DNA of 25,706 nucleotides from an uncultured Dehalococcoidia bacterium (GCA_903890885.1 CAITCX010000517.1:1-25706), one strand, 5' to 3'. Shown: positions 6,001 through 23,480, counted from the stretch's first letter. Notes: generated by a model from the letters alone, not told the origin. A program made the numbers and translations.

Positions 6001-6232
6001 GGTACATCAGGGAAATTATCTGGGCATAACTATTACTAACCATGACCAGCATGGCAATAGCCACGTAATTTTCGGAGGCCATGATTCCTATTTAAAACCG
6101 CCTTCAGGTTCCCCTTCATTTCCGGTTCCTGAACTACCGGCTGGTATTTTGCTGGGAATAGGAATTGTGGGGTTGCGTGTCTATGCGTTATTAAGAAGGA
6201 GTAAAACTGCTAACAAAGCCATAATCCCATAA
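3089..6232 (+). CDS. Internalin-like leucine-rich-repeat cell-surface protein: signal peptide, two capped LRR modules, Big_2 Ig-like domain, PEP-CTERM-like VPELP sorting signal
   Basis: ATG 3089 after AGGAGG. About 22-aa LRRs (LxxLxLxxNxIxDIxxL). N-caps FPDANLRAAI and LPDDNLEAAV; matching C-caps NFLDITPGSDDMADI and NHLDISAGSATMNDV. Big_2-like WVSSNNAVAWVGSYGVVTG. C-terminus FPVPELPAGILLGIGIVGLRVYALLRRSK. Confidence 0.9.
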   Translation: MKRLVSSGTPGIILKVVLTVLFCLSTFGIKTFDAQAFSGEGGVYFPDANLRAAINDALGRERSHSVIPADLESLTYLYAAGYGVADLEGLQYGINLDRLSLGHNPITNIEILHHLTDLKELSLGNTSVSDYSPLSYLTNLSVLGLNGANISNISFLDNLNGLTMLSINNSNLSNLGPLEDMEYLSYLNLADNKISSIESLRGLPRLKELDLIGNQVSSISALEDVPTLETLWLYFNQITSIAPLENCHNLYAIWADFNQITSLEPITGLTSLVNASFARNQIEHIPDLSELTSLQRLDLFGNNIAGFWLDTQFPEHLKILNLSSNPLGTFSFIYGIAALHLDSVEVMGLANCGLTSGFDIDELPDVKEIYLSGNQLESDDLYALVGGQSSPIDPPPINTMDVADNLIDSISTLANWTRITSGGVLNVSSNFLDITPGSDDMADINVLKNRGVSVTYDPQKVLLDLPDDNLEAAVKAALHRSLGYILTSDFNALTYLAANNANITNLSGLEKFPNLQTLVLANNQISDISPLTGLTKLMYLYLNDNQIVNIPSLSGLTKLYSVTLANNQIENITALAGLPNLYFLYLDNNHVNQISALSGLTKLIYLGLSGNTIEDISVLASMTNLQAVYLDSNRISNISALTSLLNLQSIRLSANLVSDLSPLNNKTTLYNLELDSNPVTDIHYLSTLSNLSSLKLCSDNIDDSDLSFLVGLGSLSELYLNSNQITDISQLAGMENLYYLAIVHNHLDISAGSATMNDVAQILDRGGTVLYYPQQTEVVSLGIDPPVVAGLPVEDEVILKAVGTYADGSQVDLSTQVAWVSSNNAVAWVGSYGVVTGAATGIAVITASLPGGLSADVDVTVIPPVHLAILIPAGPDDSPTILPDESIDLLMQYPAQDDVTFAAGEWKVVFYADYYEEDYTQVFGINIGEYGPAGEVLGKSAYQQPGLSMIQSLNSVNSYPLTFYIDREGFTVHQGNYLGITITNHDQHGNSHVIFGGHDSYLKPPSGSPSFPVPELPAGILLGIGIVGLRVYALLRRSKTANKAIIP

Positions 6233-6377
6233 GTTTTCAACCGCAGATGAAGAGTACTCAGAAGAGGCGTCGGAATAGCTCTCTAAAGGGATAAAAATCG
6301 TTGAGGGTATATTTGTGCATTGTTGATAGGTTCAGCTTATAATGTACGGTAATATGCAGTATTTGAGGAGGATGTCA

Positions 6378-7142
6378 TTGAAGTGTCGGCTTGTACCTGT
6401 CATAGCTATTATTGCCCTTTTGATGATGATGGGAGTGGGGTGTGGAACCTCTGCCAATTCAACACGGCAGCCTCGTAGCGTCACCGTGACTGGCAGTGCC
6501 GATGTGATGGTGGTGCCCGATGAGGTCGTGTTCTCCGTGGGCGTCGAAACCAGCGACTTAGTGCTGACCAGGGCCAAGAATGACAACGATGTCATTATCA
6601 AGAAAGTGCTTGCTCAAGCGCAAAGCCTGGGCGTAGAAGAGAAATACATTCAGACAGACTACATAAGCATCGAACCGCGCTACCAGGATGCTTATCTGAA
6701 GGACGGATATCAGAAGCGGGAACTTGTTGGCTACTTTGTAAGCCAGAACATTGCCTTCACTCTTAAGGATGTATCCAGATTCGAGGCCCTATACAGTACC
6801 ATTCTGGAAAGTGGTGTGAACCATGTCTACGGCATCGAATTCCGCACCACAGAACTGCGCAAGTACCGTGACCAGGGACGTGCCATGGCCATTCAGGCTG
6901 CCCGTGAAAAAGCTGAAAGTTTGGCAAAAGAGATGGGACAGACCGTCGGCGTCCCTCTTTCTATTAATGAAAACAGCAACTGGGGATACCGCTCCTACTC
7001 ATGGTGGGGAGCGTCCTCCGCAATGTCGCAGAATGTTATTCAGAATGCCCCTTCGCAAGGTATATCAGATGGCGGCAGCACTATGGCCTTAGGCCAGATT
7101 GCTGTCAATGCAAGTGTGAGCGTTACTTTTGAACTGAAGTGA
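6378..7142 (+). CDS. SIMPL domain (DUF541/BP26-like) lipoprotein
   Basis: SVTVTGSADVMVVPD, DYISIEPRY, AIQAAREKAESLAKEMG and QIAVNASVSVTFELK are typical SIMPL segments; lipobox GVGC. Start chosen at TTG 6378 (6 nt after GAGGAGG); ATG 6342 and 6372 are alternatives. Confidence 0.88.
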   Translation: MKCRLVPVIAIIALLMMMGVGCGTSANSTRQPRSVTVTGSADVMVVPDEVVFSVGVETSDLVLTRAKNDNDVIIKKVLAQAQSLGVEEKYIQTDYISIEPRYQDAYLKDGYQKRELVGYFVSQNIAFTLKDVSRFEALYSTILESGVNHVYGIEFRTTELRKYRDQGRAMAIQAAREKAESLAKEMGQTVGVPLSINENSNWGYRSYSWWGASSAMSQNVIQNAPSQGISDGGSTMALGQIAVNASVSVTFELK

Positions 7143-8498: not shown

Positions 8499-9302
8499 TT
8501 ACAAATTGGCTATAACCAGTTCTTTGAGTAATTTTTCTATCTCCCGTAGTATCGTTTCAAATGCCGGAAGCTGAAGAATTTGTTGTTCAAGTTCACTCGA
8601 CCAGTATTGTTTAAGTGTAGCGCTATCTTTCGGTAGAAAATCACTAATGCCTGTGAAAACGAGATTTTTATGGATTAGCTTTTTAGTTAGTACCTGACCC
8701 AACAGTTTGAAGTCCAATAGGGAGGCTTGCTCTTTAAGTAGTCGCCAGACATCATAATAGTCCCGTGCCTTGCCTCTCTCGAGCAAACTCCTGATTTTCT
8801 CAGCCAGTAACTCTTCAAGACGGTAGGCTAGTACGGACTCACCTTCAGATAAGAACGGTTGAGATAAAATGAGCCTTTGTTCAGGCTCAAGGCAAAGTGG
8901 TTCATCAAAACTCAGATCCATGAAAATCATACCTGGATATGCTAACGGACCGGTAAATTGTGCCCTGACACGGGCATATCCATTCGGTTTATGCAGCATT
9001 TTCGTGGTGAGTCTTATCTGAGATGTTCGCTCTAGCTGGAAGTACCATTCATCCATGGCATTCCGTAGTTCCTTCTCATTCATTTCCTGTTTAACGGTAA
9101 AATCCAGGTCTTCTGAATAGCGCCAGTCGGCAAAGTAAACCTTGCGTAAAGCGGTACCGCCTTTGAATACCAATAAGCTTTTAAGCGACGCCACCTGGGA
9201 GAGAGCCTTCAGTACCTCGGTGAGGACATAATCTTTCTCCAGAACACCCAGGCCTATCTTTTCCCGATTGGCCAGTCTTTGTAAATCTGTCCTCGAAATC
9301 AT
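8499..9302 (-). CDS. abiEii: AbiEii/AbiGii-family nucleotidyltransferase toxin (type IV TA)
   Basis: EKDYVLTEVL, VFKGGTALRKVYF...RYSEDLDF, LAEKIRSL, KARDYYDVW. Start at ATG 9302 overlaps the antitoxin stop (ATGA). Confidence 0.92.
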   Translation of the reverse strand: MISRTDLQRLANREKIGLGVLEKDYVLTEVLKALSQVASLKSLLVFKGGTALRKVYFADWRYSEDLDFTVKQEMNEKELRNAMDEWYFQLERTSQIRLTTKMLHKPNGYARVRAQFTGPLAYPGMIFMDLSFDEPLCLEPEQRLILSQPFLSEGESVLAYRLEELLAEKIRSLLERGKARDYYDVWRLLKEQASLLDFKLLGQVLTKKLIHKNLVFTGISDFLPKDSATLKQYWSSELEQQILQLPAFETILREIEKLLKELVIANL

Positions 9303-10123
9303 CGTTGATCCTTCCATTGTGACAATTCATTTTCTGGAAGATTCACAATTATCTTCCATCGCTCGATATGCTTGCCCTTGGGCTTAGAAAGAATATCCAG
9401 CGGGGTATATCGGGTACTCAGGTTACTCTGCAGGATCTTTATGGCTTTCTCGGCCCGGAATCCCAGGGATTCAATAAGATACCCCAGGCGTTGGCTGGCA
9501 GCCCGGTTGCCATTCCGCCTGGAATATTCAGCCAGTTTGGTAAAATCCAGATCCTCTCGCCCGTACCACAAGGCCTTGGCTACTTCTCCTATTCCTCCGC
9601 AGTAACGTATCTGGTCCAGGCAATCTACGATGGTTTTTTCGGGTTCTGAAATATTGATTTGGTAGTTATCGATAGTAATCTGCTTAATTCCGAAATATTT
9701 TCGCTCAGGCAATTTGACCATTTGATAGGTTACCCCGGAAATTATCAGAGAAGATTTCAGCTTACGTTTGGTAGAGGCTATATATACTTTGCGGCTAATC
9801 TGTTCGGTATAGCCGTAATAATTCAAGGCGCTGCGAAAACCTATATAATAGGGGTCGATTAGATAAGAGCCGATGATAAATTCATGCTCTGTCCATTCTC
9901 GCTCTCTGCCAGCTTCAAACGGTATTATCAGGTATTTACCCTTCTCAATACGTTGCAGCCAGCCACGTTTGACTAATGTTGACAATAATTCACGCAACCT
10001 GCGATTATCGCTGCCATATGCTTTGACAGCATCCTCGTAGATAAAAATACGTTTACCCTGGCGAGAGATCTGTGCTAACAGATCGCTTCCAGCCCCACCA
10101 AGTGTTCTGACGTTATATGACAT
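9299..10123 (-). CDS. abiEi: AbiEi-family antitoxin/transcriptional regulator (type IV TA)
   Basis: N-terminal wHTH (LSTLVKRGWLQRIEKGKYLI), YYIGFRSALNYYG and ISEPEKTIVDCLD. Lies upstream of, and coupled to, the AbiEii gene. Confidence 0.9.
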   Translation of the reverse strand: MSYNVRTLGGAGSDLLAQISRQGKRIFIYEDAVKAYGSDNRRLRELLSTLVKRGWLQRIEKGKYLIIPFEAGREREWTEHEFIIGSYLIDPYYIGFRSALNYYGYTEQISRKVYIASTKRKLKSSLIISGVTYQMVKLPERKYFGIKQITIDNYQINISEPEKTIVDCLDQIRYCGGIGEVAKALWYGREDLDFTKLAEYSRRNGNRAASQRLGYLIESLGFRAEKAIKILQSNLSTRYTPLDILSKPKGKHIERWKIIVNLPENELSQWKDQR

Positions 10124-10600: not shown

Positions 10601-10632
10601 AAAATTAGAAAAGAGAGGACTTTGTGAGAATC
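10601..10632 (+). repeat. Dispersed GAGAGGA/GTGAGAA box element, copy 1 (degenerate, no TATAAT)
   Basis: GAGAGGA (10613) CTTT GTGAGAA (10624) T shares its core with copies at 13771, 20287 and 23298. Confidence 0.75.
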
Positions 10633-10650
10633 CCCCATTCCGCTTGTCAA

Positions 10651-12318
10651 TTATTTTATTATGATTTGTAACCCAATGTCGCAATCCCCTTTAGTACCAT
10701 TTACCCTCCCACCCGCCCAATAGCTACCCGCTTCTTCCTTGGAGAGTCCCGTTTGTCCATACGAATTCCCAAAGAATGTGTACCCGGAGTATATGCCCAG
10801 CATATCATGATTGTCTAAGAGAGAAGGGTTGTCCTCGTCCCATACTCCAACCTCCCAGTATAGGAAAGGCCCTGCCTCAGGTGTGTCGAAAATAACCTTC
10901 CATTCAGGCTGCCAGTTTTCCCCAATCACATCATTATCGCTCTTGCTGGTCGTGCCAGAACTGGGGAAGCGGCTAATGACCTCACCTAACACATTGCCGT
11001 TGAAAAAATCGGCAACCCGGGTCCAGACATATATTTCAGCATCGAAGGAATCCCCATTTTCGTAAATATCGATCGGGTTTAGTCTCACTTCGACGGGGCG
11101 GTTCAAGGCCTCTGTATAGAGTATTCGGTAGCTAAACACAGCATTTCTATTATGTGCCCAATATACCTTCCCAATATCTGGCCCCGCGCCCCAGTTTTCC
11201 TCACGGGTGTAGGTGTAGTCATAAACACCGATGAAATCGGCGGCCTGTTCCCGCATGCTTTTCAAGTAATTAGTTGGATCCTGATCAGGATTTGGGGCTA
11301 TGGACTGTCCATTGATTGAGAACCAGCTTGGAACATTCTCCACGGCCCATTCTTTCCAATTTTGAACGTCGTCATCGTCCCACGCCATCATAAATAAGCG
11401 AAGACCATCACCCATCTGGTCTTCGGGAAGACAAAAGATCGGGAGATTTACGCTTATTATGGTGCCGTTAGGCGCTTCGTGCCATTGCTTAACGGGAAAC
11501 CTCGCGTTTTGCACCTTGTCACCCGTGCTTGCGCCAGAAAATATCTCTATCTCGCCAGGCCCTCCACTGTCCGAGTTGTCCAGAATCTGCACGGAATCAA
11601 GGAAAACCGCTATATACTTGTTAGGATCTGGAGGAAGCGTCTCTGTCGTTCTTGTCGGTGATATCATCGGAAGGGAAGGATTCAGCAATCCCGTATTTGG
11701 AAGAGATGTTACCTTGGGGGACACAGTCGATGGTGCAATCAGCGGTCCGGGAAGAGATGTTGACCTGGAGGATGCTGTCGAGCGAGTGGTAAGTGGGATT
11801 GAGGACGTTGCCTCTGGAGGTACCCCCGGTAGTGCAGTTACCAGTCCAGTGGGAGGTGGTACCCTGGAGGATGCCGTTGAGCGTGTCGTTAACGGCCTTG
11901 AGGCAGTTCCCTCAGGGGCCGTAATCGACGGTTCTATTAACGAACCCGGGAGAGTTGTTGCCCTGGGAAGTGCCGTCGAGCGGGTGGTTAGTGGGGTTGA
12001 TGAGGTTGACGCAGGGGACTCTGCCGGTAGTACAGTTACCATTCCCGTGAGAGGTGGTACCCTGGAGATCGCAGTCGGACGTGTTATTAAAGGGCTCGCA
12101 GGTGTTGCATCGAGGGATTCCACTGGCGTTAGCTGCTGACTGCTGGGACTGGATTGGGCCGGCCGTATAGGAACCTTGAGATTCGGCGGCGCCCCGCGTA
12201 GTGTATCGTTTTCCGTTCCCGGTCCCAGTGGGCCAGTTGCGCAGGCCATAGGGACTGCCAACAAAAATAAAAACAACAAGACACAAAGTATTCCTGTTGG
12301 AAATCCTTTACTTTTCAT
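10651..12318 (-). CDS. Secreted protein: signal peptide, Ser/Thr/Pro-rich repeat stalk, two putative C2-like acidic beta-sandwich domains
   Basis: Start at ATG 12318 (MKSKGFPTGILCVLLFLFLLAVPMACA). Four 33-aa PLTTRSTA repeats. Two C-terminal segments have the pattern DxxDxxxxGE/AEI...(A/V)WD(D/E)D. The C2 call is inference. Confidence 0.75.
   Translation of the reverse strand: MKSKGFPTGILCVLLFLFLLAVPMACATGPLGPGTENDTLRGAPPNLKVPIRPAQSSPSSQQLTPVESLDATPASPLITRPTAISRVPPLTGMVTVLPAESPASTSSTPLTTRSTALPRATTLPGSLIEPSITAPEGTASRPLTTRSTASSRVPPPTGLVTALPGVPPEATSSIPLTTRSTASSRSTSLPGPLIAPSTVSPKVTSLPNTGLLNPSLPMISPTRTTETLPPDPNKYIAVFLDSVQILDNSDSGGPGEIEIFSGASTGDKVQNARFPVKQWHEAPNGTIISVNLPIFCLPEDQMGDGLRLFMMAWDDDDVQNWKEWAVENVPSWFSINGQSIAPNPDQDPTNYLKSMREQAADFIGVYDYTYTREENWGAGPDIGKVYWAHNRNAVFSYRILYTEALNRPVEVRLNPIDIYENGDSFDAEIYVWTRVADFFNGNVLGEVISRFPSSGTTSKSDNDVIGENWQPEWKVIFDTPEAGPFLYWEVGVWDEDNPSLLDNHDMLGIYSGYTFFGNSYGQTGLSKEEAGSYWAGGRVNGTKGDCDIGLQIIIK
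11698..12093 (-). repeat. Intragenic 99-bp repeat x4 in A-B-A-B order
   Basis: Units begin PLITRPTAISRVPP, PLTTRSTALPRATT, PLTTRSTASSRVPP and PLTTRSTASSRSTS; each is 33 aa. Confidence 0.85.
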
Positions 12319-12522
12319 AGGCACCCCCTTATTATTTACCACTATATACCATTTTAGGCAACCGCGATGGGGTGCGTTACATTTTATCCCTTAGTAACTT
12401 TGAACAATTCTCTGCACAGTTTTACAAAAACCAGGGGGACGATGTGTTTGAAGTGAACATGCATAATTTAAAAATGCTGTATAATTGCCTTAATAAAGGA
12501 ATTTATCCTTGTGCCTATCAAC

Positions 12523-12566
12523 TTGACAATTCCCTGATCGCAGTATAATATACTGCTATCGCAGTA
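12523..12566 (+). promoter_or_regulatory. Promoter/operator of the MNT-HEPN operon
   Basis: TTGACA (12523) and TATAAT (12544), with a short 15-nt spacer. Palindrome TACTGC-N4-GCAGTA at 12551-12566; ATCGCAGTA occurs twice (12537, 12558). Confidence 0.6.
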
Positions 12567-12575
12567 AATAATACT

Positions 12576-13175
12576 ATGTATAACGATTTATTACCGGCTT
12601 TATTGGGGTCTAAGCTAAGAGCAAAAGTGCTCGGATGGCTGTTCATCCACATCGATGAGCGTTATTTTGTCCGGCAGCTTACGGCTTTACTTGGTTTGGA
12701 TTCTACCAATTTAAGCCGTGAGCTCGCGCGCCTGGAAAAACTGGGTCTGTTAGTCTCTACCACTTCAGGTAAACAAAAATATTACCAGGCTAACCCCAGG
12801 AGCCCTATCTTTAATGAACTGCACAACCTCATGGTAAAGACAGCCGGAGTGGTAGATATCTTGCGTTCTGCCTTGAATCCAGCCGACCGGCAGATAAATT
12901 TGGCTTTTATTTTTGGGTCTGTTGCTAACAGGACAGAAGACAGGGCCAGTGATATCGATATTATGATAATCGGTGATATCACGTTTGACGATGTTGTTAG
13001 CCTCTTGAATTCGGCTGAGAAAACCCTGGGCCGGGAAGTTAATTCTGTTGTTTATCCACTTGAAGAGTTTCAATTGAAAGTTAAGAGTGACCATCACTTC
13101 GTTAACTCGGTACTTGAAGGGGAAAAGATCTTTTTAATCGGAGATGAGAATGAGCTTAACCGACTTAGCCGGTGA
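12576..13175 (+). CDS. HTH-fused minimal nucleotidyltransferase (MNT) antitoxin
   Basis: N-terminal wHTH (YFVRQLTALLGLDSTNLSRELARLEKLGLL). MNT motif FIFGSVANRTEDRASDIDIMIIG (GS...DxD). Confidence 0.88.
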   Translation: MYNDLLPALLGSKLRAKVLGWLFIHIDERYFVRQLTALLGLDSTNLSRELARLEKLGLLVSTTSGKQKYYQANPRSPIFNELHNLMVKTAGVVDILRSALNPADRQINLAFIFGSVANRTEDRASDIDIMIIGDITFDDVVSLLNSAEKTLGREVNSVVYPLEEFQLKVKSDHHFVNSVLEGEKIFLIGDENELNRLSR

Positions 13176-13587
13176 AGGTAAATTCAAAGCTCATAAAACA
13201 AGTAAGTCTGAAATCACGCAGTTGTTGGCGGTTTTTGACAGAGACCTGGCGGATGCCCAAATATCCAACCTCAGTACTGACAGGCGTTTTATCATGGCTT
13301 ATAGTGCTGCGCTAACCATGGGTATTGCCGCGCTGGCTGCCAGTGGCTATCGCGCTGGCAGTGAGGGTCATCATTATTGGACTATTCAGTCATTGGCTTT
13401 TACTCTGGGAACAGATCCGAGGACCGTAGAGAAATTGAACAAGTTCCGCCACAAGCGTAATATCGCTGATTATGAAAGAATTGGCATGGCTTCTGGGCAA
13501 GAAGTGAGTGAAATGTTAGACCTGGCAAAAAGATTGCGGCTGGATTTAGTAGAATGGTTAAAAATCCACCATCCCGAATTGACATAA
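13150..13587 (+). CDS. HEPN-like toxin partner
   Basis: Overlaps the MNT stop. About 145 aa, helical, with AY..AL, GHH and RHKRNIADY (RN-x3-Y variant of the HEPN Rx4-6H site). Confidence 0.75.
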   Translation: MSLTDLAGEGKFKAHKTSKSEITQLLAVFDRDLADAQISNLSTDRRFIMAYSAALTMGIAALAASGYRAGSEGHHYWTIQSLAFTLGTDPRTVEKLNKFRHKRNIADYERIGMASGQEVSEMLDLAKRLRLDLVEWLKIHHPELT

Positions 13588-13745
13588 TATCTGCCTTATT
13601 TATTCCAAAATCAAGCCGTGTTTCTAGTATAAATTGAGCCTCCCCAACCTCCCCGACTGGCATTTGTTTGTTCCTTACCTCCTGTAATTCTTCAGCTTGA
13701 AGACGTTTTTATCCACTTGCGCCCTGAATTGTGAAATATTCAGAA

Positions 13746-13802
13746 AAAAAGCCCCAAATGTGAGAAAAAAGAGAGGACTTAGTGAGAATTGGAGTGTATA
13801 AT
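13746..13802 (+). promoter_or_regulatory. Dispersed box element, copy 2: three 11-bp-phased boxes plus TATAAT
   Basis: GTGAGAA (13760), GAGAGGA (13771), GTGAGAA (13782), 8-nt spacer, TATAAT (13797). Upstream AAAAAGCCCC is shared with copy 4. Confidence 0.75.
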
Positions 13803-13847
13803 ATATATGTCAGGATAACTGACACTTCTCTTACCTCCCTCCACAAG

Positions 13848-13886
13848 CTTCAGCCCGACCTGGCACAGGTCGGGCTGAAGACTTTT
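13848..13886. terminator. Strong hairpin, probable intrinsic terminator
   Basis: Perfect 15-bp stem CTTCAGCCCGACCTG / CAGGTCGGGCTGAAG with a GCA loop, followed by ACTTTT on the + strand. Lies about 120 nt past the convergent ABC permease stop. Confidence 0.75.
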
Positions 13887-13999
13887 AAATGGGTTAAATC
13901 CAAAAACCATCACAGCCGGATGCCCCCACCATGAAGGTTATTCAATTTCTTCTTCAGTGGAACCCCTTTTCGGGTTGCACAGCCCCTCCTGGTTCTTAT

Positions 14000-15118
14000 T
14001 TAAGCCGTAGTTTTATTTAAGCGGGAGGCGGCGAAAATCAAAGTTGCTACAGCCAGACCTGCCAGAATTCCAGTGTCTGTCCATAAAAACTGCATATTCA
14101 CTCCCTTAACCACGATGCCCCGTAAAATACGCAGGAAATAGGTCAGGGGCAACACTGCTGAAACCCATTGTATTACTTTGGGCATAGAATCTATAGGAAA
14201 AATAAAACCACTAAGCATAATATTAGGCAGAAGGACCATTACGCTCAATTGCATGGCCTGGAACTGGGTGCGTGAAACTGTGGAGATAAGAATTCCAATT
14301 CCCAGTGAAAACAAAACAAAAACGAAGGACAGGGCCAATAAGAGCAGCAAGCTTCCTTTAATCGTTAGACCGAAAATCAGCATGGAACCGCCGATAACTA
14401 ATAATATTTGTAAGTAAGCCACGAAGATGTACGGGATAATTTTGGCAATGATAAGTTCTCCCCGGCTTAAAGGAGTGACATTTAGCTGTTCTATAGTTCC
14501 CGTCTCTCGTTCCCTGACAATCGCAAAAGCAGTGAGCATAACAATGAGAAACTGTACGATGACGCCTACTACCCCCGGAAGATAAAATATGGAGCTTTTA
14601 AGATCCGGGTTATATAACACCTGGGGTTGAATCGTAAGTGGTGTATAAACCCCATTCTTTCCCCTTGATTGAGAGGCTAATGAGACCCCTTTGGCCTGGG
14701 TTATCAGGCTGGCATTAGAAAGTGCCTGGGTCCCCTTGGCAGATTCGGAGCCGTCAATATAAAACTGCACAGCCGCCGTTTTACCGGCCTGTAGGTTGGT
14801 AGCGAAATCCGCAGGTATAACCAGGGCAGCGGAAATAGAGCTCGCGTCCATCAAATTGTAGATATCCTGGTAACTGGTGGCATAATATTTAAGGGCAAAC
14901 AGGTCCTGGTTGCTAAAGCTCTGGATGAGTTCTCTGCTTTCAGTGGAACGGCTGTTATCCCACACTGCCAGAGAGATATTTTTGATGTCTGAACTCAAAG
15001 CATAACCAAAAAGAATAAGCTGGATCAGGGGTATAACTACCACCATGGCCAGGGTGCGGCGGTCGCGGCGAAGTTGAATGAATTCCTTTATACAAATGGC
15101 CAAAATACGCTGCAGCAT
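14000..15118 (-). CDS. ABC-2 type transporter permease (YbhR/YbhS-like)
   Basis: KEFIQLRRDRRTL, IVRERETGTIEQLNVTPL, LSGFIFPIDSMP, LPLTYFLRILRGI; multiple TM helices. Confidence 0.93.
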   Translation of the reverse strand: MLQRILAICIKEFIQLRRDRRTLAMVVVIPLIQLILFGYALSSDIKNISLAVWDNSRSTESRELIQSFSNQDLFALKYYATSYQDIYNLMDASSISAALVIPADFATNLQAGKTAAVQFYIDGSESAKGTQALSNASLITQAKGVSLASQSRGKNGVYTPLTIQPQVLYNPDLKSSIFYLPGVVGVIVQFLIVMLTAFAIVRERETGTIEQLNVTPLSRGELIIAKIIPYIFVAYLQILLVIGGSMLIFGLTIKGSLLLLLALSFVFVLFSLGIGILISTVSRTQFQAMQLSVMVLLPNIMLSGFIFPIDSMPKVIQWVSAVLPLTYFLRILRGIVVKGVNMQFLWTDTGILAGLAVATLIFAASRLNKTTA

Positions 15119-15121
15119 GGC

Positions 15122-17074
15122 TCACACTCCTTTTGTTTTTAAAGAACCGGCCTGGTTTTCTTGGGTTTCGATCAATGACACGAACACATCTTCTATCGTA
15201 AAAGGGATTGGCGTAATATTTTGGATCAAAACACCCTGGTTTTCTAATAAGGTACGAATATCCTGGAAGTCGGGTTGTTCTTCATCCACTATCAAATGTA
15301 TGGTGCTGCCGAAAAATCCCACTTGATGGTAAACCGGTTGAGTTGAGAGTAATTCCACGGCTTTGGTCAGGTCCGAGCACTTTATTTCTATTAGCTTGCC
15401 TTTAATCTGTTCTGTTTTTAGTTGGGATGGACTCCCGGTGGCAATTAATTTCCCTCGATGCATTAACCCCAGACGGTGGCAGTGTTCTGCTTCATCCATA
15501 TAATGGGTGCTGACCAGAATAGTTGTACCCTGGATGGCTAGTTCCTGGATGAGATCCCAGAAAAACCGCCTGGATAATGGGTCGACTCCGGCAGTGGGTT
15601 CATCGAGCAATATCACCTGAGGTCGATGTATAATGGCACATCCCAGGGCTAATCTTTGCTTCCAACCGCCGGATAAGTCCCGTGAAAGCAATTTTTCTTT
15701 ACCCTGCAGGCCGGCCATCTGCAGTACCCAGTTCCTCCTCTCATTCAATAGAGGCCCGGAAAGTGAATATAGACCGCCGTAGAAGTTGATGTTCTCAGCT
15801 ACAGTCAAATCCGGGAAAAGAGAAAACTTCTGTGACATATAACCAATTTTTGTCCGAAAGGTATTGGAAACTGTCATCATGTCCTGTCCCAGGACGTCAG
15901 CCTCGCCGGAAGTGGGTTTTAATAGTCCGCAGAGCATACGGATTGTGGTAGTTTTACCTGACCCGTTAGGCCCTAAAAATCCAAAAATTTCACCCCGTTT
16001 AACGGCAAAACTAACCTGGTCTACGGCTGTGAAATGGCCGAATTTGCGGGTCAAACTCGAGACCTGGATAACCTTCCCTTGTGGATCAGCGGACTTATTT
16101 TGTGCCGCTTTAGCGCTTTCTGTTGATAGAACTAGCGGAGCAACGGGTGCTTTTGATCCATCCAGTAAGTTGATGAAAACATCTTCAAGACCTGGAGCAA
16201 TGGGTCTGGCATCCTCAAGCGTTAATCCCTCTTCCTTAAGCAAAACAGGGATTTCTGATAACCTTTTTCCGGCATTGTCTACCAGGAGATGAATCGCATC
16301 ACCGAAAATTTGAGCGCTGGTTATCCAGGCGGTTTTGCGCAGCAAAGCCAGCGCCTTTTCCGGCAGGTCAGTCTTGATTTGTATTAATTCTCCGGGAAGT
16401 TGAGATTTTAATTTTTCAGGAGAATTGCAGGCAATTATCTTTCCCTCGTGCATTAACGCCACCCGGTTAAATCTTTCTGCTTCGTCCAGATAAGGGGTGG
16501 AAACAAAAACGGTGATTCCTTGCGCTACAAAACGCGATACTATCAGCCAAAAATCCCGTCGTGATACAGGATCAACACCGTTGGTAGGCTCATCCATGAA
16601 GACTATCTCGGGCTTATGAATCAAACAGCAGCATAATGCCAACTTTTTCTGCATACCGCCGGATAATTGTTCAGCCAGCCTGTTTCGGAACGGCTCCAGG
16701 CGGCTGAATTCAAGCAATTCTTTCTTTCGCTCTCGAGCTTGTACCCGGGGAACAAGGCGCAGACGGGCAAAAAAATCCAGGTTCTCTTCAACTGTCAAAG
16801 TAGAATACAGGCTAAATCGCTCGGACATATAGCCGATCCTGGGTTTGATATATGCAGCCTGTTTCAAGGTGTCCAGGCCCATTATGGCCACCGTTCCGGC
16901 CGAAGGGCGCTCCAGCATACATAACATTTTGATACTGGTCGTTTTCCCGGCTCCATCCGCTCCCACTAAGCCAAAGATATCCCCCTTTTTTACAGTGAGG
17001 TCTATGCCTGCTACAGCGATTGTATCCTTATATCTTTTTTGCAGATTATTAACTTCGATTGCCGCCGCTTCCAT
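15122..17074 (-). CDS. ABC transporter ATP-binding protein with two NBDs (YbhF-like)
   Basis: Walker A GADGAGKTT and GPNGSGKTT; signatures LSGGMQ and LSGGWK; Walker B FMDEP and LLDEP. Confidence 0.95.
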   Translation of the reverse strand: MEAAAIEVNNLQKRYKDTIAVAGIDLTVKKGDIFGLVGADGAGKTTSIKMLCMLERPSAGTVAIMGLDTLKQAAYIKPRIGYMSERFSLYSTLTVEENLDFFARLRLVPRVQARERKKELLEFSRLEPFRNRLAEQLSGGMQKKLALCCCLIHKPEIVFMDEPTNGVDPVSRRDFWLIVSRFVAQGITVFVSTPYLDEAERFNRVALMHEGKIIACNSPEKLKSQLPGELIQIKTDLPEKALALLRKTAWITSAQIFGDAIHLLVDNAGKRLSEIPVLLKEEGLTLEDARPIAPGLEDVFINLLDGSKAPVAPLVLSTESAKAAQNKSADPQGKVIQVSSLTRKFGHFTAVDQVSFAVKRGEIFGFLGPNGSGKTTTIRMLCGLLKPTSGEADVLGQDMMTVSNTFRTKIGYMSQKFSLFPDLTVAENINFYGGLYSLSGPLLNERRNWVLQMAGLQGKEKLLSRDLSGGWKQRLALGCAIIHRPQVILLDEPTAGVDPLSRRFFWDLIQELAIQGTTILVSTHYMDEAEHCHRLGLMHRGKLIATGSPSQLKTEQIKGKLIEIKCSDLTKAVELLSTQPVYHQVGFFGSTIHLIVDEEQPDFQDIRTLLENQGVLIQNITPIPFTIEDVFVSLIETQENQAGSLKTKGV

Positions 17075-17095
17075 CAGTCTTTCCTTGGCATTATT

Positions 17096-18295
17096 TTATT
17101 GGGTTATGATACCGGCATCCGCCGGCATACCGGACTTGAGCTTCTGTTCCGGATTGGGCAAGGTTATCTTCACGGCAATTACAGTTTTCGCCCGCTCTTC
17201 CACGGTCTGAACATTTTTAGGTGTAAATTCTGCTGCGGATGAGATAAATGTCACGGTCCCCTGAAATACTTGTCCGGGATAAGCATCTACCGCCACATTG
17301 GCTTTTTGTCCGAGTTTAACCAGACCTATTTGCCTCTCAGGAACATATATTGTGAGAGTCAATTTTTTGAGGTCAGATAGTGTCAGAACCGATATTCCAG
17401 GCTGGGCTAAATCACCAATTTCTGCATTTCGTTGAGTTACTGTGCCTGCCACCAGTGAAGCAATAACAGTTCTGGAAAGGTTAACCTGCGCCAATTCCAA
17501 AGATGCCTGGGCTTGATCTACCTGTTTGGCGGCGGTTTGCGCGGCCTTATCTGTCACATCAACTTGCCTGGCGGCCGTTTGGGCGGCTTTGTCTGCACCC
17601 TCTGCCGCTGCGGAAGCAACTTGATAAGCTGCCTGCAACTGGTCTGTACTGGCCTTGAGACTTTGAGGATTATTTTTAATAGCCAGCAAACTATCCAGCA
17701 CAATCCTGGCGCCGTCTCGCTGTTGAGTGGCATAAACTAATTTGAAGGGATATACGGCATCGTTGATTGACCCCGTAATATCCTCAGCGTATTCTAAGCC
17801 CTTTTCCGCTAAGTCCAGTTGGCTTTGAGCCTGGGCGATGCGAATATCGATCTCCAGCGGATTTTGTTGTATTTCTTGAGCATCCTTCCAGGCCGTTTTG
17901 GCGCCATCCATATAAATCTTAGCCTGGTTTTGCGCTGCCTGGGCCTGTTGTAAGACGGCCTGGGCAACCGGCAGCCCTGCCTGAGCTTGTTGCAAAGCGC
18001 TCTGGGCTACCTGCAGGGTGGCTTGAGCCTGCTTAAGTTGGGCCTGCTGTATAGAATCATCCAGTTTGATAATAGCATCACCCGGGGTAACCTGATCGCC
18101 TTCATCGAATGCAATTGAGATTATGCGTCCGCTTATTTCTGGCGATATCCCGACATTGGTAGATTCGATAAATCCAGAAGCTTTAATTGTAGAAATATCA
18201 ACTGGCGCTTCTTTGCGGTGATAGTTCCACCATAGTCCACCGCCAACGCCGATTACTAATAAAACGATTACCGGTATCAGAATTCGTTTGTGCAT
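17096..18295 (-). CDS. HlyD/YbhG-family membrane fusion protein
   Basis: N-terminal TM, ASGFIE, lipoyl-like ISGRIISIAFDEGDQV, long Ala/Gln coiled coil, AEFTPKNVQT, LKSGMPAD. SD AGGAGG. Confidence 0.93.
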   Translation of the reverse strand: MHKRILIPVIVLLVIGVGGGLWWNYHRKEAPVDISTIKASGFIESTNVGISPEISGRIISIAFDEGDQVTPGDAIIKLDDSIQQAQLKQAQATLQVAQSALQQAQAGLPVAQAVLQQAQAAQNQAKIYMDGAKTAWKDAQEIQQNPLEIDIRIAQAQSQLDLAEKGLEYAEDITGSINDAVYPFKLVYATQQRDGARIVLDSLLAIKNNPQSLKASTDQLQAAYQVASAAAEGADKAAQTAARQVDVTDKAAQTAAKQVDQAQASLELAQVNLSRTVIASLVAGTVTQRNAEIGDLAQPGISVLTLSDLKKLTLTIYVPERQIGLVKLGQKANVAVDAYPGQVFQGTVTFISSAAEFTPKNVQTVEERAKTVIAVKITLPNPEQKLKSGMPADAGIITQ

Positions 18296-18307
18296 ATTCC
18301 CTCCTTT

Positions 18308-18952
18308 TTACTTGCCCGCCCGTGGTTTAGCGCCTGGCTGGTTTAGTCCAAAAAGTACAAAGTTCACCATTTCGTCGACGATTTGGCCTTGCGGCAGGCG
18401 GTTCAAAGGGCTATTCTCACCCTCTATACTTTTTAAAAAATTCATACCCAGCATCATGCCGCCGACCAATCTGACAGTAACGGCAGGTTCCATAGGCCGG
18501 AATTCTCCTGCCTCAACGCGCGCGCGATAGAGTTCTTCCATCCTGGCTAAAAATGGCCGTATAAGTTTTTCCATGAATATGGCCCTCAGTTCAGCATCAC
18601 GCTGAATCTCTCCGATCAGAGATAACAGCTTGGTCAAAAGTACACTTTGTAAAATGGAAAGGCGTTCATTTAAGGCTTTTTTCAAGGTTTTCTGAAAATT
18701 TTCTCCGGTCTCATTTTTAAAGACATTAAGTATTGGAACTACCATCAAGCTCTCTATGACAGCGATGAATAATTCCCGTTTGCTGGGATAATAAATATAG
18801 ATAGTACCTGTCGCCAGACCGGCTGACCTGGCGATCTCAGGCATGGTGGATTCCGCGTAACCCTGTTTAGCAAAAAGGTCCAAAGCCGCGTCCAATATTT
18901 GTTGACGCCGTTTGTCCCCAATTTGTTTCTTTCTGGTCTCTCTATCAGCCAT
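18308..18952 (-). CDS. TetR/AcrR-family transcriptional regulator
   Basis: RQQILDAALDLFAKQGYAESTMPEIARSAGLATGTIYIYYPSKRELF. SD AAGGAGG. Confidence 0.95.
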   Translation of the reverse strand: MADRETRKKQIGDKRRQQILDAALDLFAKQGYAESTMPEIARSAGLATGTIYIYYPSKRELFIAVIESLMVVPILNVFKNETGENFQKTLKKALNERLSILQSVLLTKLLSLIGEIQRDAELRAIFMEKLIRPFLARMEELYRARVEAGEFRPMEPAVTVRLVGGMMLGMNFLKSIEGENSPLNRLPQGQIVDEMVNFVLFGLNQPGAKPRAGK

Positions 18953-18965
18953 CCTGGCCTCCTTG

Positions 18966-19021
18966 ATATAATGAATGAATGGTCATTCATTATATTATAT
19001 ATCTTGCGCACGAAAAGTCAA
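18966..19021 (-). promoter_or_regulatory. Promoter and palindromic TetR operator
   Basis: Perfect 13-bp arms ATATAATGAATGA-N4-TCATTCATTATAT (18966-18995) overlap a minus-strand TTGACT-N16-TATAAT (19021-18994). Confidence 0.85.
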
Positions 19022-19493
19022 GGGTACTCCGGGTACGGCTGCAGGGGTGAGGGTCAATTATTTTGCTTCGGTTGCTGAAGAGGGTAAAAATTTATTAAAA
19101 TTGGTTAAACGAAAGGCTTAATTACAGGTTCGCCTGGAGATTATTTTGGTGCGGCAAAAATGAATCGGATTGTCTTGCAGCTGCAATAAATATTTAAACG
19201 TCATTACCAATGCAGGTTAAAAATGTTTATTTCTTTAATGACGTGGAGTATACCTCCATTGCTCCGTGGTTCGAAAACAATATCGCGAAATTGAGATTAA
19301 TTCAGCCCCAGTACGCCACCCCGGCACCGGCTGTCTCTGCAACAACGGCCACTGCTGTTCCAACTCCGGCTGGTCTGCCCGGTTGCAGCAGCCGCTACAT
19401 CATGTAATGTGACGGCTAAAACTTCAATAACTGCTGTTTTAACCTGTGAGTTATGCCTGAAGGATAATGCGGTTTTAAGGTCAAAACCCGCTC

Positions 19494-19522
19494 TTGACTT
19501 GCTAGGCTGCGTTCAATAACAT
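19494..19522 (+). promoter_or_regulatory. Sigma70-type promoter for the TIGR04076-like gene
   Basis: TTGACT-N17-TAACAT, about 140 nt upstream of the ATG. Confidence 0.55.
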
Positions 19523-19663
19523 AGATGGTAACTCCATTAAGAGGTAGGGGGCAGCTACCTCAATATCAGTGTTTTACGATACTGGCGGCTTATCCTTTGT
19601 TATATTCAGGCAGTGATGGAGCGGCTACTTCTTGTGCCCTATTTTATTGAAGGAGGAACAGGT

Positions 19664-19999
19664 ATGTCACCAGAGTATGACGTGCGAATTAAGGTAATAT
19701 CCCAGGAGGGCAGGTGCGGCGCCGGTCATAAAGTTGGGGATGAATGGATCGTGGGTGCTACAACTCCCGGTGGCATGTGTTTCAATGCCTTCGCTGTTCT
19801 GCAATCCAATATCAGGATCCTGAGGTTTGGCGGTAAATTTCCCTGGGGGAGAAATCCGGATAGTCTTAGATTAGCCTGCTCCGACTTCAGGAATCCGGTT
19901 ATCTTTGAAATTAGCCGCATCTATAAACCGGGTGAGGAACCGCCCCCGGTTGAAGCGGCAGAAAAGGCTCCGCCCATGCCTCCACCACCTGTGAAATAA
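19664..19999 (+). CDS. TIGR04076-family protein with a Pro-rich C-terminal tail
   Basis: VRIKVISQEGRCGAGHKVGDEW, GGMCFNAF, LRFGGKFPW and ACSDFRNPVIFEISR. ATG 19664 follows AGGAGG. Confidence 0.8.
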   Translation: MSPEYDVRIKVISQEGRCGAGHKVGDEWIVGATTPGGMCFNAFAVLQSNIRILRFGGKFPWGRNPDSLRLACSDFRNPVIFEISRIYKPGEEPPPVEAAEKAPPMPPPPVK

Positions 20000-20002
20000 A
20001 AG

Positions 20003-20047
20003 TGGTTTGCCTGGAGGGATTCTAACCCTCGACTACCGGTTTCGAAG
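20003..20047 (-). mobile_element. Decayed tRNA-Arg(TCG) 3'-half fragment, probable att junction of an integrative element
   Basis: Minus strand CTTCGAA-ACCGG-TAGTC-GAGGG-TTAGAAT-CCCTC-CAGGCAA-A-CCA reads as anticodon loop, 3' anticodon strand, variable loop, T-arm, acceptor strand, discriminator and CCA. The 5' half is absent. Confidence 0.8.
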
Positions 20048-20133
20048 TGCGTCTGTAAAGACAACTTTAGCCTTATAATGTCACCATTTATTATTAGGAC
20101 TTAAGGGAGTATTACGCGCCATGGTGACTAATG

Positions 20134-20167
20134 TTTGCTAACAAAGAATAGCAAACAGAATAGCAAA
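20134..20167. repeat. TAGCAAA repeats, putative integrase arm-type sites
   Basis: TTTGCTA (20134, inverted) plus GAATAGCAAA at 20146 and 20158, about 90-120 bp inside the att fragment. Confidence 0.55.
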
Positions 20168-20286
20168 AACCAATAACAATGACCCAAATATTATCTTCCG
20201 CTAAATTATTTGGATATTCAGCATTTAGGCCGCATTTACCAAACTGTAACTATTTTTCAAAATATTTACCTTAAATTGGCCAAATC

Positions 20287-20397
20287 GTGAGGACTTAGTG
20301 AGAATTGGCGGGTATAATAAGTGCTTAGAAGGTGAAAAGTGGCAATTAGATGATTGTTTATATCTGCTGAATTCAAACTGTAAAAACATTTTCCATC
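20287..20397 (+). repeat. Dispersed box element, copy 3, with an ~80-nt leader shared with copy 4
   Basis: GTGAGGA (20287), GTGAGAA (20298), 8 nt, TATAAT (20313). About 80% identical to 23298-23407 over ~105 bp by manual alignment. Confidence 0.85.
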
Positions 20398-20464
20398 ACT
20401 CGTTTGTTTTTCTGTCTTTTAAATTGTATACTCTTCCCTAGCTTCAAGATTAAGGGGGTGTATA

Positions 20465-23137
20465 ATGGCGCCAGTCATTCTAGCAGTAACCAGTTCCCGG
20501 ATTACCGGTATTTCATTTGACGATCTGATCAAATTAAGCACGCAAACCATACTCGAAAATGTTTCCCCCAGCCATACTTTCTATGTCTATGTTTACGGGG
20601 TAGACGTTAAATATTCCGTGATAACCGAAGAAGTGAAGAGCAAGATAATAACTTACCCCAGCGGAAGGAAACACTTTAGCATCAGAACACTGTCATTTAC
20701 TATCAAAAGCAGCCGCAGCCTGACCGGTCTTATTCCAATACCCGGAATAGGCAGCATCCTGGAACTGGAAGTGCAGGTACCCTCATCTCTCAAACTCAAA
20801 AAGCTGGAAGGCGCCGAGCGCTTTGGCCCGGTCATGTTTACTAAAATCAAGGTGGTTGATGAGAACACGGGCACCAGTAATCTCTGGCCGCTGTGCATCC
20901 TGTTGAATGTCCCCACCATTCTGGGCGTTACCACTAAAAAGGTTGATGCAATAGCGAATCCTTCAAATCCTAAAGAAATTTATGCCAGTTTATTGAAAGA
21001 GAACCTGGCAACCCTGGTTAAAGGGACTACACCAGGCGTCCTCCGCCGTGGTTCAAACCGCGAGAACCCACCCACGGACGTGTATATTTACGGATGCAAT
21101 TTTATTAGTCCTGAGGTCAAGCCGGTCGAAATTGCCGCGCTTGATCACCTTTTAATTAGCAAAGATAGACGCTATCCCAGGAGAATTTGTACTATAGAAT
21201 TCGATTTTTCCATCGGGCCGCTGTCCAAGAAGTTTCATTTCACCCTCCAGGAAATAGCCGTGTCGCTGCCCTCGATGGCAGAACTTCAGGATTCCAGTAA
21301 TTACTTGCGGAACGCTATCCTGATGGCCTTTGGCGTTAAGGTGGTCAATGACTACGGAAGCGGAGAAGAGAGCAATGCCTGGCAATGGCCGATGTGGCTG
21401 CCGCTGCCGATTATCTCCGCAGTCGAACCGGATAAGGAAACTGGCTATGGCAACGGAAAGTACCTGGCAAAACAAACCTCCCTTCTTGACCAGGGCGAGG
21501 TGCGCTGGTATTTCGGGAACCCCTTCAGCGATCAGAGAAAACCTCTGCCAAAGTGTCTTCAGGGCATCGCCGCTGATCTTCAGAAGATAGACAGGATCCC
21601 TTTTGACCGTTTGAGCACAGTCTGGAATTTCAAGGCGGATGAATTGACGGGCAAGAAAACCGTGGTGCTCCCTCAAGACCTGGTCAATGTCCTCAAGGAA
21701 ATACGCGAGGCTGGAGACCTGTGCCAGGTTCTGCCTGATCACTGGAGTGATGATACCCTTATTTTCCGCCGGCCCTTTGAGAAATGTTACCAGGATACCT
21801 GCGGTTATATATACGATCCGGCCGAGGGAGATCCAGGCCGCGGAATCCAGCCCTGGACGCCTTTCGACTTTCTTCCGGCTTCCTGGGTCTGCCCCAATTG
21901 CGGCAACGGCCGTCAATATTTTGTAGAAAACGGAGAACAGAGAAAAAAGGACACGGGTTTCGCAGTTGTCTGGCGCGGCGATATCCCGTCATTACCCTTG
22001 CCCATTAACCTGTTTGAATACGTCAGAGAACTGGCTAAACGTCTCTGGCGGCCGGTGATTGGCAATGGAATATCGGACTTCTCTGTCCCTGTTCCTGTCC
22101 CGGTCGGAGAGGTCATCCATCTGGGAGTAGAACGGCTGGAAGACGTCTCTAATGAGCTTTTACAATTTATCAATGCCCAGGACGGCTTAACCGTGCAATT
22201 TGCCTTCTTGTCCAGTAATGGGAATACCGCAGATTTCAAATTGCAGGACGGTCAGGTATCAGGTCTTTCTGCGGAAACTGCCGTTGATAGAAGCGATTTC
22301 TTCACCGAGCTTCTCGAACCCGGAAAGACCGGCATTGGGGAGGCGATTAAATTTATTTATAATCCCACTGCCGGCGATTTCTACCTGCAGCTGCACATCA
22401 TTATCAAAGGCAAGATCACACTTTTTGGACAGGAGATAATAATATCTGAACCCGGTGAACCGGGTTGGGACTTCCCTATCGGCCCGCGGCTGAAGTTCTG
22501 CCCCGAGCAGATCAAGCTGCCCACAGTGGCCATTTTCTTTGAAGATAGATATTACATGGGCCGGGCTTTAGTGGCGTTTCCATCCGGAACAGGCTTGTTC
22601 GGCGATGATGATATTAAAATCGATGCGCAAACTGAGGATGCTGCTGGCTTGAACCAAAAAAGGTTTAAGATCGTCAACCAGTTAGCTCTCCTTAATGGTC
22701 TGCTTGATAAAATTAGCTGGTTTGTCAATATCCCGGCTCTTGATAAGGTCTCAGAGGTCATTGGCAGAATCTGCGCCATTGGTGGATCGCTCATGAGCAG
22801 CAAGGGTAGTATCAATGATCTAGGAGAATATTGTCTGGCCAAGCCGGATCTTTTAGGTATAGGCGGTTCGAGTTTCGCCAATTGTATTTCTTCCGCGGTG
22901 ATAATCGGACTGCCATATAATTATTCCGGGACGAAGATCATCTGCTGGGAGGGGCCGTTGACTGCGGTGGATCGAGGGCGGCGGCTCGAGCTGCCGATAC
23001 CGGATAACCAGTATATATACACGGTCAATGACTTCAGATATGTCACAACTATTCCGGAAGTTATCGAAGGAGTTGGGTTCGGCGAACCGAATGGTTTCAA
23101 CGATGCTGTCATAGGCATCGAATTCGCCGCTGATTAG
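20465..23137 (+). CDS. 890-aa multidomain protein of unknown function: IPT/TIG-like segments, internal rubredoxin, split beta/gamma-crystallin-like C-terminus
   Basis: Uninterrupted ORF after AAGGGGG. Rubredoxin sequence is clear; TIG-like ([17 protein letters not shown]) and crystallin-like ([29 protein letters not shown]) motifs are inferred by eye. Confidence 0.85.
21779..21928 (+). other. Embedded rubredoxin domain (C-x4-C...C-x2-C)
   Basis: [50 protein letters not shown]; Cys at codons 441, 446, 476 and 479. Confidence 0.9.
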
Positions 23138-23272
23138 CCTAAATAACAGCACTATGACAAATCAGATCAGCTATTATTATAACTTGCCTGCATTCATGGG
23201 CAGTTCGCTTTTTCCCTCTGCGCTTGCCCTGGGTCCCCGCCGCTGCTCTGGCCGCTTGTGCCCCGGATCATC

Positions 23273-23407
23273 AAAAAGCCCCCAAAATGAGAAAATAGTG
23301 AGGACTTCGTGAGAATTGACGGGTATAATAGGGTCTTAGTACCATAAAAGCGGCAAATAAGATCATTATTTATATCGGCTGAATTCAAGCCGTTAAAAAT
23401 TCCCATC
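23273..23407 (+). repeat. Dispersed box element, copy 4 (longest)
   Basis: ATGAGAA (23287), GTGAGGA (23298), GTGAGAA (23309), 8 nt, TATAAT (23324). Left part is shared with copy 2 and right part with copy 3. Confidence 0.85.
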
Positions 23408-23480
23408 TTGTTCACGCTCAATAACAGGTATATAATAGGCATAATCTTAAAGACTTCTAATTTTAAGGATAACAATAATT

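Follow-up and report, generated by a model that had tools for sequence, protein, structure and literature searches.

The window examined here, a stretch of 25,706 nucleotides, is contig CAITCX010000517.1 (C517) of an uncultured Dehalococcoidia bacterium (GCA_903890885.1, here G000), and its subject is a short non-coding cassette that occurs in it four times. G000 is a metagenome-assembled genome (MAG) of 2.3 Mb in 529 contigs with 47% G+C, 93.7% complete and 6% contaminated, with DNA from freshwater lake and sediment metagenomes; RpoB places it among the Dehalococcoidia (Chloroflexota), the named best matches being about 70% identical. The 17-mer GAGGACTTNGTGAGAAT in the core of the cassette starts at 10615, 13773, 20289 and 23300, always on the plus strand and with 0 mismatches. 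Its chance expectation in the window is 0.01, and four copies were reached in 0 of 100 shuffles. According to the map of open reading frames (ORFs), copy 1 lies between an AbiEi/AbiEii pair and a 563-aa ORF, copy 2 between PDC-M05A/B and a convergent ABC-2 permease gene, copy 3 between a tRNA-Arg fragment and an 890-aa gene, and copy 4 between the 890-aa gene and a PLD-SNF2 helicase gene. A first-pass annotation of this DNA had described a four-copy core that is confined to one strand and always intergenic, and these results agree with it on both counts. Scans of the window against Rfam (gathering score) and for tRNA genes gave no match, and thus no overlap with any copy.

Copies 2, 3 and 4 are full cassettes on the plus strand, at 13764..13803, 20280..20319 and 23291..23330, with weight-matrix scores of 60.1, 53.5 and 58.4, respectively. 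Direct reading of copy 2 gives GTGAGAA at 13760-13766 (an extra upstream box), GAGAGGA at 13771-13777 and GTGAGAA at 13782-13788, and that of copy 4 gives ATGAGAA at 23287-23293, GTGAGGA at 23298-23304 and GTGAGAA at 23309-23315, in 11-bp steps in both copies. The claim of three equally spaced heptamers in these two copies is therefore right as to the spacing, but the first box of copy 4 (ATGAGAA) carries one mismatch. TATAAT follows exactly 8 nt past the last box at 13797-13802 in copy 2, 20313-20318 in copy 3 and 23324-23329 in copy 4, just as the first-pass annotation had it. It is also evident that the boxes stand where a -35 element should be: no -35 near TTGACA occurs at a spacing of 16-18 bp, the best candidate being AGGACT (3 of 6 positions at 17 bp), and a consensus sigma-70 scanner makes no call. 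Copy 1 (10606..10631, plus strand, score 32.6) is truncated, with an A-tract, GAGAGGA at 10613-10619 and GTGAGAA at 10624-10630. It had been reported to lack the -10, and it does so because its similarity breaks off directly past GAGAAT at 10631. It matches positions 6-28 only of an Infernal model of the cassette, its breakpoint adjoins the 3' end of the 563-aa ORF on the minus strand, and its upstream 60 bp or so resembles the copy at cas3 on contig C288 (85% over 61 bp, including a terminator-like hairpin). Copy 1 is a truncated scar, a dead remnant of the cassette.

For the genome-wide search that the first-pass annotation had proposed, a 40-nt weight matrix built from the first hits was scanned over G000, with the reversed genome as control. 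The scan returned 16 sites, with scores from 28 to 61. The range between 16 and 28 was empty, and scores in the reversed genome stayed below 16. A sequence-only Infernal model recovered the identical 16 sites. Twelve metagenome contigs carry the exact pattern; with 98-100% identity they belong to the same population, and they extend the short contigs of the MAG, whose breaks cluster at cassette repeats. Metagenome contigs of this population bring four further loci, so that the family comprises about 20 copies in total.

The consensus of the family, AAAAAAGAGAGGACTTAGTGAGAWTTGnnGTGTATAATA, describes a cassette of about 40 bp that is made up of an A-tract, two GWGAGRA boxes 11 bp apart, 8 variable bases and TATAAT. 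Conservation is position-specific: G, T and A positions are invariant in both boxes and the -10 is nearly so, five or six spacer positions vary freely, and one G three bases 5' of the -10 is invariant. Perfect TATAAT is present in 14 of the 19 distinct full copies and near-perfect versions in most others. The self-similarity of the profile, taken over 19 distinct copies, is highest at an offset of 11 bp, where it reaches 0.56 per position; other offsets give 0.10-0.39. The 11-bp phasing is thus kept in the further copies, and two phased boxes are therefore a general feature of the family. A third upstream box is clear in about three copies of the genome only (copies 2 and 4 and, loosely, the copy before a pilin gene), an A-tract standing there elsewhere. 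If the start is taken as 7 nt past the -10, the boxes span about -38 to -21. In some copies a word similar to GGNCTTAG recurs at about +1 to +8, which would be compatible with a factor that binds cooperatively on either side of the -10. By eye, the only dyad in the consensus is a 7-bp ACTNAGT, which some of the copies have. GAGAAT was considered as an alternative -10 and discarded, as it fits one copy only (C163).

The cassette appears to be restricted to this population. A search of 100 other genomes of its order, one of them from a same-genus species (95% complete, 30 contigs), turned up no copy, and exact patterns including the -10, both strict and relaxed, had no match among about 185,000 species representatives or in viral contigs. 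In a DNA search with the first 20 kb of the window, no match was found in the same-genus genome, which could be due to either divergence or accessory status. Three variants of the 17-mer in a same-family genome, G002, were rejected as copies of this cassette, because the repeated element of about 150 nt to which they belong has its own upstream -10-like site and a downstream terminator. That element occurs in three copies (L002, L004 and L006) and carries GAGGAATTAGTGAGATT after the -10-like site, with the terminator at its end. An OmpR-type regulator gene stands about 670 bp away from one of the copies, and the element may represent a family of small RNAs or leaders.

Among the 20 copies, 17 or 18 are followed by a co-directional ORF that begins 20-440 nt downstream (gene calls being longest-ORF approximations). 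The copies that face no such ORF are the truncated copy 1 and copy 2, for which a short terminated transcript is predicted. The best-scoring copies include those that head a type I-C Cas3c gene (E = 8e-220), a type III Cas10/Csm1 gene with its operon, a type III restriction-modification operon (Mod/Res with PDC-S22), a gene for a complete HTH-WYL-WCX regulator followed by mzaB, C, D and E, and a radical-SAM plus Double-GTPase (DO-GTPase2) operon; best-scoring copies also precede the PLD-SNF2 helicase gene (DrmD/PbeA-like) and the gene for the 890-aa rubredoxin-domain protein in the window, and a second PLD protein elsewhere. Behind lower-scoring copies are a type IV pilus operon (pilin, T2SSE ATPase, T2SSF platform) and genes for secreted proteins (LamG, C39-peptidase/Ig-like and trypsin-like). 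Defence genes thus stand at seven or eight of the 20 heads, a descriptive count made without a formal background model. According to the first-pass annotation, copies scattered through core housekeeping promoters would make this an ordinary regulon site. No copy precedes a recognisably core housekeeping gene, with the limit that not every downstream gene could be named, and the promoter model is therefore left standing. No CRISPR array was found upstream of the cas3 copy. At L042:13406-13728, two copies stand back to back 240 bp apart, one facing the nine-gene radical-SAM/Double-GTPase operon and the other an unknown gene.

In the window itself, copy 3 heads the 890-aa gene at 20465-23137, and copy 4 heads the helicase gene, which starts at 23481 and runs off the window at 25706. 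A second, ordinary sigma-70-like promoter (TTGTTC, 17 nt, TATAAT) lies before the helicase gene at 23408..23436 (plus strand), and the same segment also follows the cassette in the type III restriction-modification copy on C270 (90% over 60 bp). The cassette is not found at every defence system, as AbiE and PDC-M05 in the window have other promoters. PDC-M05A (winged helix-turn-helix plus nucleotidyltransferase) and PDC-M05B, a candidate defence pair at 12576..13587 (plus strand) just 5' of copy 2, have their own consensus promoter at 12523-12551, and the AbiEii/AbiEi toxin-antitoxin pair at 8499..10123 (minus strand), left of copy 1, is not driven by the cassette. The 563-aa ORF between these two pairs (10651-12342, minus strand) has no Pfam or PADLOC match.

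Copy 2 has no downstream ORF before a terminator. The putative transcript from it, about 77 nt long (13809..13885, plus strand), has a predicted fold with a minimum free energy of -38.7 kcal/mol (z = -8.2), comprising a 5' hairpin, a single-stranded CU-rich CCUCCCUCC stretch and a strong terminator hairpin at 13848-13880 with a 15-bp stem. The CCUCCCUCC stretch is complementary to Shine-Dalgarno sequences. No paralogue of the predicted transcript was found in the genome. Copy 2 may thus drive a small RNA, and the putative transcript looks like a trans-acting small RNA of the same regulon.

The surroundings of copy 3 connect part of the family with genomic islands. The 3' half of a tRNA-Arg(TCG) gene, an att remnant, lies at 20003..20047 (minus strand) inside a 48-nt match (20000-20047) that is 91.7% identical to contig C18, where an intact tRNA-Arg is found at c[3453-3528]; metagenome contigs with the intact tRNA part from the window exactly at 20047. 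Between this remnant and copy 3 is an arm-like segment of about 230 bp with TAGCAAA repeats (20048..20279, plus strand). The copies at type III restriction-modification (C270) and at cas10 (C401/L039) have this arm in common with copy 3 at about 80-85%, together with the tRNA-Arg(TCG) 3' half. The copy on C450 and one plus-strand copy on L042 share only the promoter-proximal 55 bp or so of the arm, and the remaining 15 copies have neither remnant nor arm. In the arm, at 20120-20170 of the window and at the equivalent places in L045, L039 and L013, there are two direct repeats of GAATAGCAAA and one inverted copy, which are probably integrase arm-type sites; one of the repeats is deleted in the metagenome cas10 allele. 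Further tRNA-Arg remnants are present on C270, on C401 and twice on C499, where two 3' halves bracket an 8.6-kb element (L065, 5455-14134) with genes for a Toprim primase, an AAA_25 protein, an HK97-type capsid protein and a tyrosine integrase. That element resembles a phage satellite that has inserted at the same tRNA. Because the remnants recur, and those on C499 bracket an integrase-bearing element, tRNA-Arg is an integration hotspot.

In the arm-bearing subfamily, then, the cassette would be an inward-facing promoter at the far end of related islands with different cargo. The first-pass annotation had offered the conserved ends of integrative elements as one explanation for all copies. This holds for the subfamily of copy 3, the type III restriction-modification copy and the cas10 copy, with their tRNA-Arg half and arm, but most copies, including the two best-scoring ones (cas3 and copy 2), share just the 40-bp core and are therefore not decayed island ends. 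Likewise, the idea that copies 1 and 2 are scars of older insertions agrees with the truncation of copy 1 but not with copy 2, which is no scar and has only the core in common with the others.

Outside the 40 bp, the flanks are unrelated in most pairs of copies. At the cas10 locus, the sequences of G000 and the metagenome are identical from about 70 nt past the -10 onward, and only about 85% identical upstream, in the cassette and the arm; these diverged versions of arm and cassette at the cas10 operon (L039:3100-3480 versus L013:3790-4054) come from different strains. Moreover, the type III restriction-modification copy on C270 combines the upstream region of copy 3 with the downstream region of copy 4. 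From these mosaics we infer that the cassette moved among loci by recombination, and that its present positions mark the junctions of modules, the inner end of tRNA-Arg islands among them. Two joints between metagenome contigs and the window (10603 to 13765 and 20321 to 23400) were considered as deletions and rejected, as they are instead the paralogous cas3 and type III restriction-modification loci with mixed flanks.

Taken together, the four copies in the window probably belong to a lineage-specific family of about 20 portable, factor-dependent promoter-operators of the sigma-70 type, which would co-regulate accessory cargo, much of it for defence. In this arrangement the housekeeping sigma factor would use the -10 and the A-tract would act like an UP element; given the poor -35, the output would be set by a protein bound to the two direct repeats on one helix face. 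The likeliest binder would be a winged-helix activator of the OmpR/PhoB type, and a repressor that occludes the -35 and spacer would be the alternative. One signal could then co-regulate accessory operons for the CRISPR type I-C and type III effectors, type III restriction-modification, WYL-Mza and the PLD nuclease and helicase genes, and the same signal would also reach the radical-SAM/GTPase operon, the type IV pilus operon and several secreted proteins. The mobile activator-dependent promoter suggested at first is broadly borne out, in so far as a discrete family of about 20 copies is nearly always co-oriented with unrelated accessory operons; the factor that acts there may be an activator or a repressor. 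Transcription from the cassette, its regulator, the direction of regulation and the co-regulation are what we infer from this anatomy. An OmpR-family response regulator gene (L018:5767-6555) with its kinase (the pair at 4926-6555) lies directly upstream of one copy, and no orthologue of this regulator was found in the motif-free same-genus genome. As the binder of the cassette it is a lead only.

Several observations weigh against this explanation. Own proximal promoters are found at several of the target genes, namely the helicase gene, cas3 and the WYL gene, so that the cassette is not strictly required for their expression. The confinement of the cassette to one population, with its absence from the same-genus genome and all other species searched, rules out phylogenetic footprinting, and some of the conservation could be due to recent spread. 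No RNA run with this organism came up in searches, and the starts are predictions from sequence. The MAG is fragmented and may mix strains, and the copy number per cell is therefore uncertain. The adjacency of the response regulator would arise by chance in an estimated 20% or so of such genomes, and the copy that it adjoins scores low (31.7).

A more far-reaching possibility, which we put forward tentatively and with some doubt, is that the cassette serves as the cis-acting element of a master switch for immunity and at the same time as a homology patch for swaps of cargo in tRNA-Arg islands, wiring new systems on arrival. A single regulator of a new kind, binding direct repeats, would then turn on two CRISPR types, type III restriction-modification, Mza, the PLD genes and the radical-SAM/GTPase system, and the switch would also take in the pilus, a likely phage receptor, and the anti-Shine-Dalgarno small RNA.

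It is unlikely that the cassette is a portable strong constitutive promoter without a dedicated regulator, its boxes having been kept by recent copying. Such a promoter could account for the confinement to one population, for the mosaic junctions and the allele swap at the cas10 locus, and for the resemblance of the A-tract plus GAG to the consensus of the proximal UP subsite, which Estrem and colleagues (in 1999) reportedly gave as AAAAAARNR; the reuse of promoters before unrelated genes is also widespread (PMC3575422). Yet the same spacer positions vary repeatedly while the boxes are fixed even in the most diverged copies (scores 28-38), which points to selection on the boxes, and with its poor -35 and no extended -10 the promoter would be weak unaided. 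The HTH-WYL-WCX regulator (333 aa) that heads the mza operon is one candidate for the factor that binds the cassette, in a DdaA/PafBC-like immune regulon. We regard this assignment as unlikely. The WYL gene, which would thus be autoregulated, is the sole regulator gene immediately downstream of a copy, and G000 has one WYL gene of this kind where the motif-free same-genus genome has none. The protein also matches the N-terminal part of the PADLOC model for a WYL-Cas3c fusion, the remainder of which is matched by the separate Cas3c, likewise behind a copy (L046:5122-6123 covers positions 5-317 and L035:10158-12326 positions 324-1001 of this one model). The PafBC motif, too, stands in the place of the -35. 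Its promoters are read by sigma adaptation (PMC11804915). On the other hand, the sites of DdaA and DriD are palindromic (PMC12392091), and the repeats of the cassette are direct and form no dyad. Between the cassette and the extended -10 promoter that the WYL gene has of its own, there is a perfect 10-bp inverted repeat, GGATTTCACA-N20-TGTGAAATCC at L046:5021-5060, which occurs nowhere else in the genome. It lies 5' of the WYL-mzaBCDE operon (L046:5122-13496; no mzaA was found) and is probably the WYL regulator's own operator. Furthermore, the closest homologue (79% identity) has no cassette upstream, and a WYL gene beside the regulated system, as in a WYL-regulated defence promoter, is seen at 1 of the 20 copies only (L046).

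P2 Cox and 186 Apl bind phased direct repeats both at att sites and at promoters, and with this precedent the repeats could be sites for an Xis/recombination directionality factor or an integrase accessory protein at the ends of tRNA-Arg islands, the copies without a remnant being old scars and a Cox/Apl-like protein coupling excision to transcription. The copies at copy 3, type III restriction-modification and cas10 do lie about 240-280 bp from a tRNA-Arg(TCG) 3' half and share the TAGCAAA arm, the hotspot is intact on C18 and holds a satellite-like element with a tyrosine integrase between the two remnants on C499, and copy 1 is truncated. We nevertheless consider this quite improbable as an explanation for the family: remnant and full arm are present in 3 of 20 copies only, with 2 more sharing the promoter-proximal segment, and the best-scoring copies (cas3, copy 2 and copy 4) have nothing in common with the arm. 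A neutral scar would be lost to decay along with its flanks, but in this family the 40-bp core persists between unrelated flanks; moreover, the integrase-bearing element on C499 carries no copy, and the orientation of the copies follows the downstream gene and not the att site. Least probable of all, and very unlikely in our view, is recognition by an alternative sigma factor, with GAGGACTT as the -35 and a TATAAT-like -10. Conservation is strong at and beyond the -35 position, and GGACTT resembles the -35 of extracytoplasmic function (ECF) type promoters, which is GGAACTT. A perfect housekeeping -10 would, however, be unusual for an alternative sigma factor, the conserved block extends to -19, across a spacer that sigma factors normally leave unread, and the 11-bp self-similarity points to a tandem DNA-binding protein.

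By what means a bacterium coordinates its many defence systems is an open question, and most of the defence regulators known so far act on a single neighbouring system. If the promoter-operator interpretation is true, the family would be a natural multi-system immune regulon built by the spread of a portable promoter. The mosaic loci suggest that cargo swapped at cassette junctions arrives wired to shared control. The cassette also provides a concrete 40-bp probe for finding the regulator.

Among known systems, the cassette comes closest in form to the pho box, at which PhoB/OmpR-type activators bring about class II activation. Promoters of this type, like the cassette, have two 7-bp direct repeats with an 11-bp period that replace a poor -35 about 8-10 bp 5' of a good -10, and in their regulons, as here, the same box heads a set of unrelated operons. 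The box sequence of the cassette is different, however; the cassette stands before defence and surface genes, occurs in one population only, and has one adjacency as its link to a response regulator. RpaB is an OmpR-type transcription factor. It controls a type III-Dv CRISPR system (bioRxiv 10.1101/2023.12.07.570523). In Moraxellaceae, DNA-damage genes and the CRISPR, restriction-modification and Zorya loci are under the common control of the WYL activator DdaA through one motif (PMC12392091). The likeness lies in a single motif in the promoters of several anti-phage systems, which are here CRISPR I-C and III, type III restriction-modification, Mza and the PLD-helicases, and in the coordination of the immune response that this would bring about. 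The motifs of DdaA (CGWCA-N5-TGWCG) and DriD (CGAC-N7-GTCG) are palindromes (PMC12392091) that are conserved family-wide and serve core DNA-repair genes, whereas the cassette has direct repeats, occurs in one population and was seen before no recognisably core gene.

The CUP (conserved upstream) elements of IncN plasmids are repeated promoter-operators controlled by ArdK (PMC6289460, citing Delver and Belogurov 1997). They resemble the cassette as a repeated promoter-operator before several unrelated genes of an accessory region, and differ in belonging to a conjugative plasmid with a known repressor, while cassette copies are spread over chromosomal contigs and islands. A survey of putative mobile promoters required 50 nt of at least 80% identity, located at -150 to -50 from the start codon (Matus-Garcia, Nijveen and van Passel 2012; PMC3575422). 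The cassette is like them in that non-homologous genes of a single genome are preceded by highly similar sequences; it differs as a unit of 40 bp that includes the -10, with a clear bias to defence genes and internal phased repeats. Copy 3 and its subfamily also recall P2 Cox and 186 Apl in having helically phased direct repeats near an att arm and overlapping a promoter, although most copies are away from any att site and no Cox/Apl-like gene was identified. Compared with all these systems, what is different here is the combination of direct phased repeats in a tight 40-bp unit that includes the -10, its occurrence in one population, its bias towards defence and surface genes and its place at the recombination junctions of tRNA-Arg islands.

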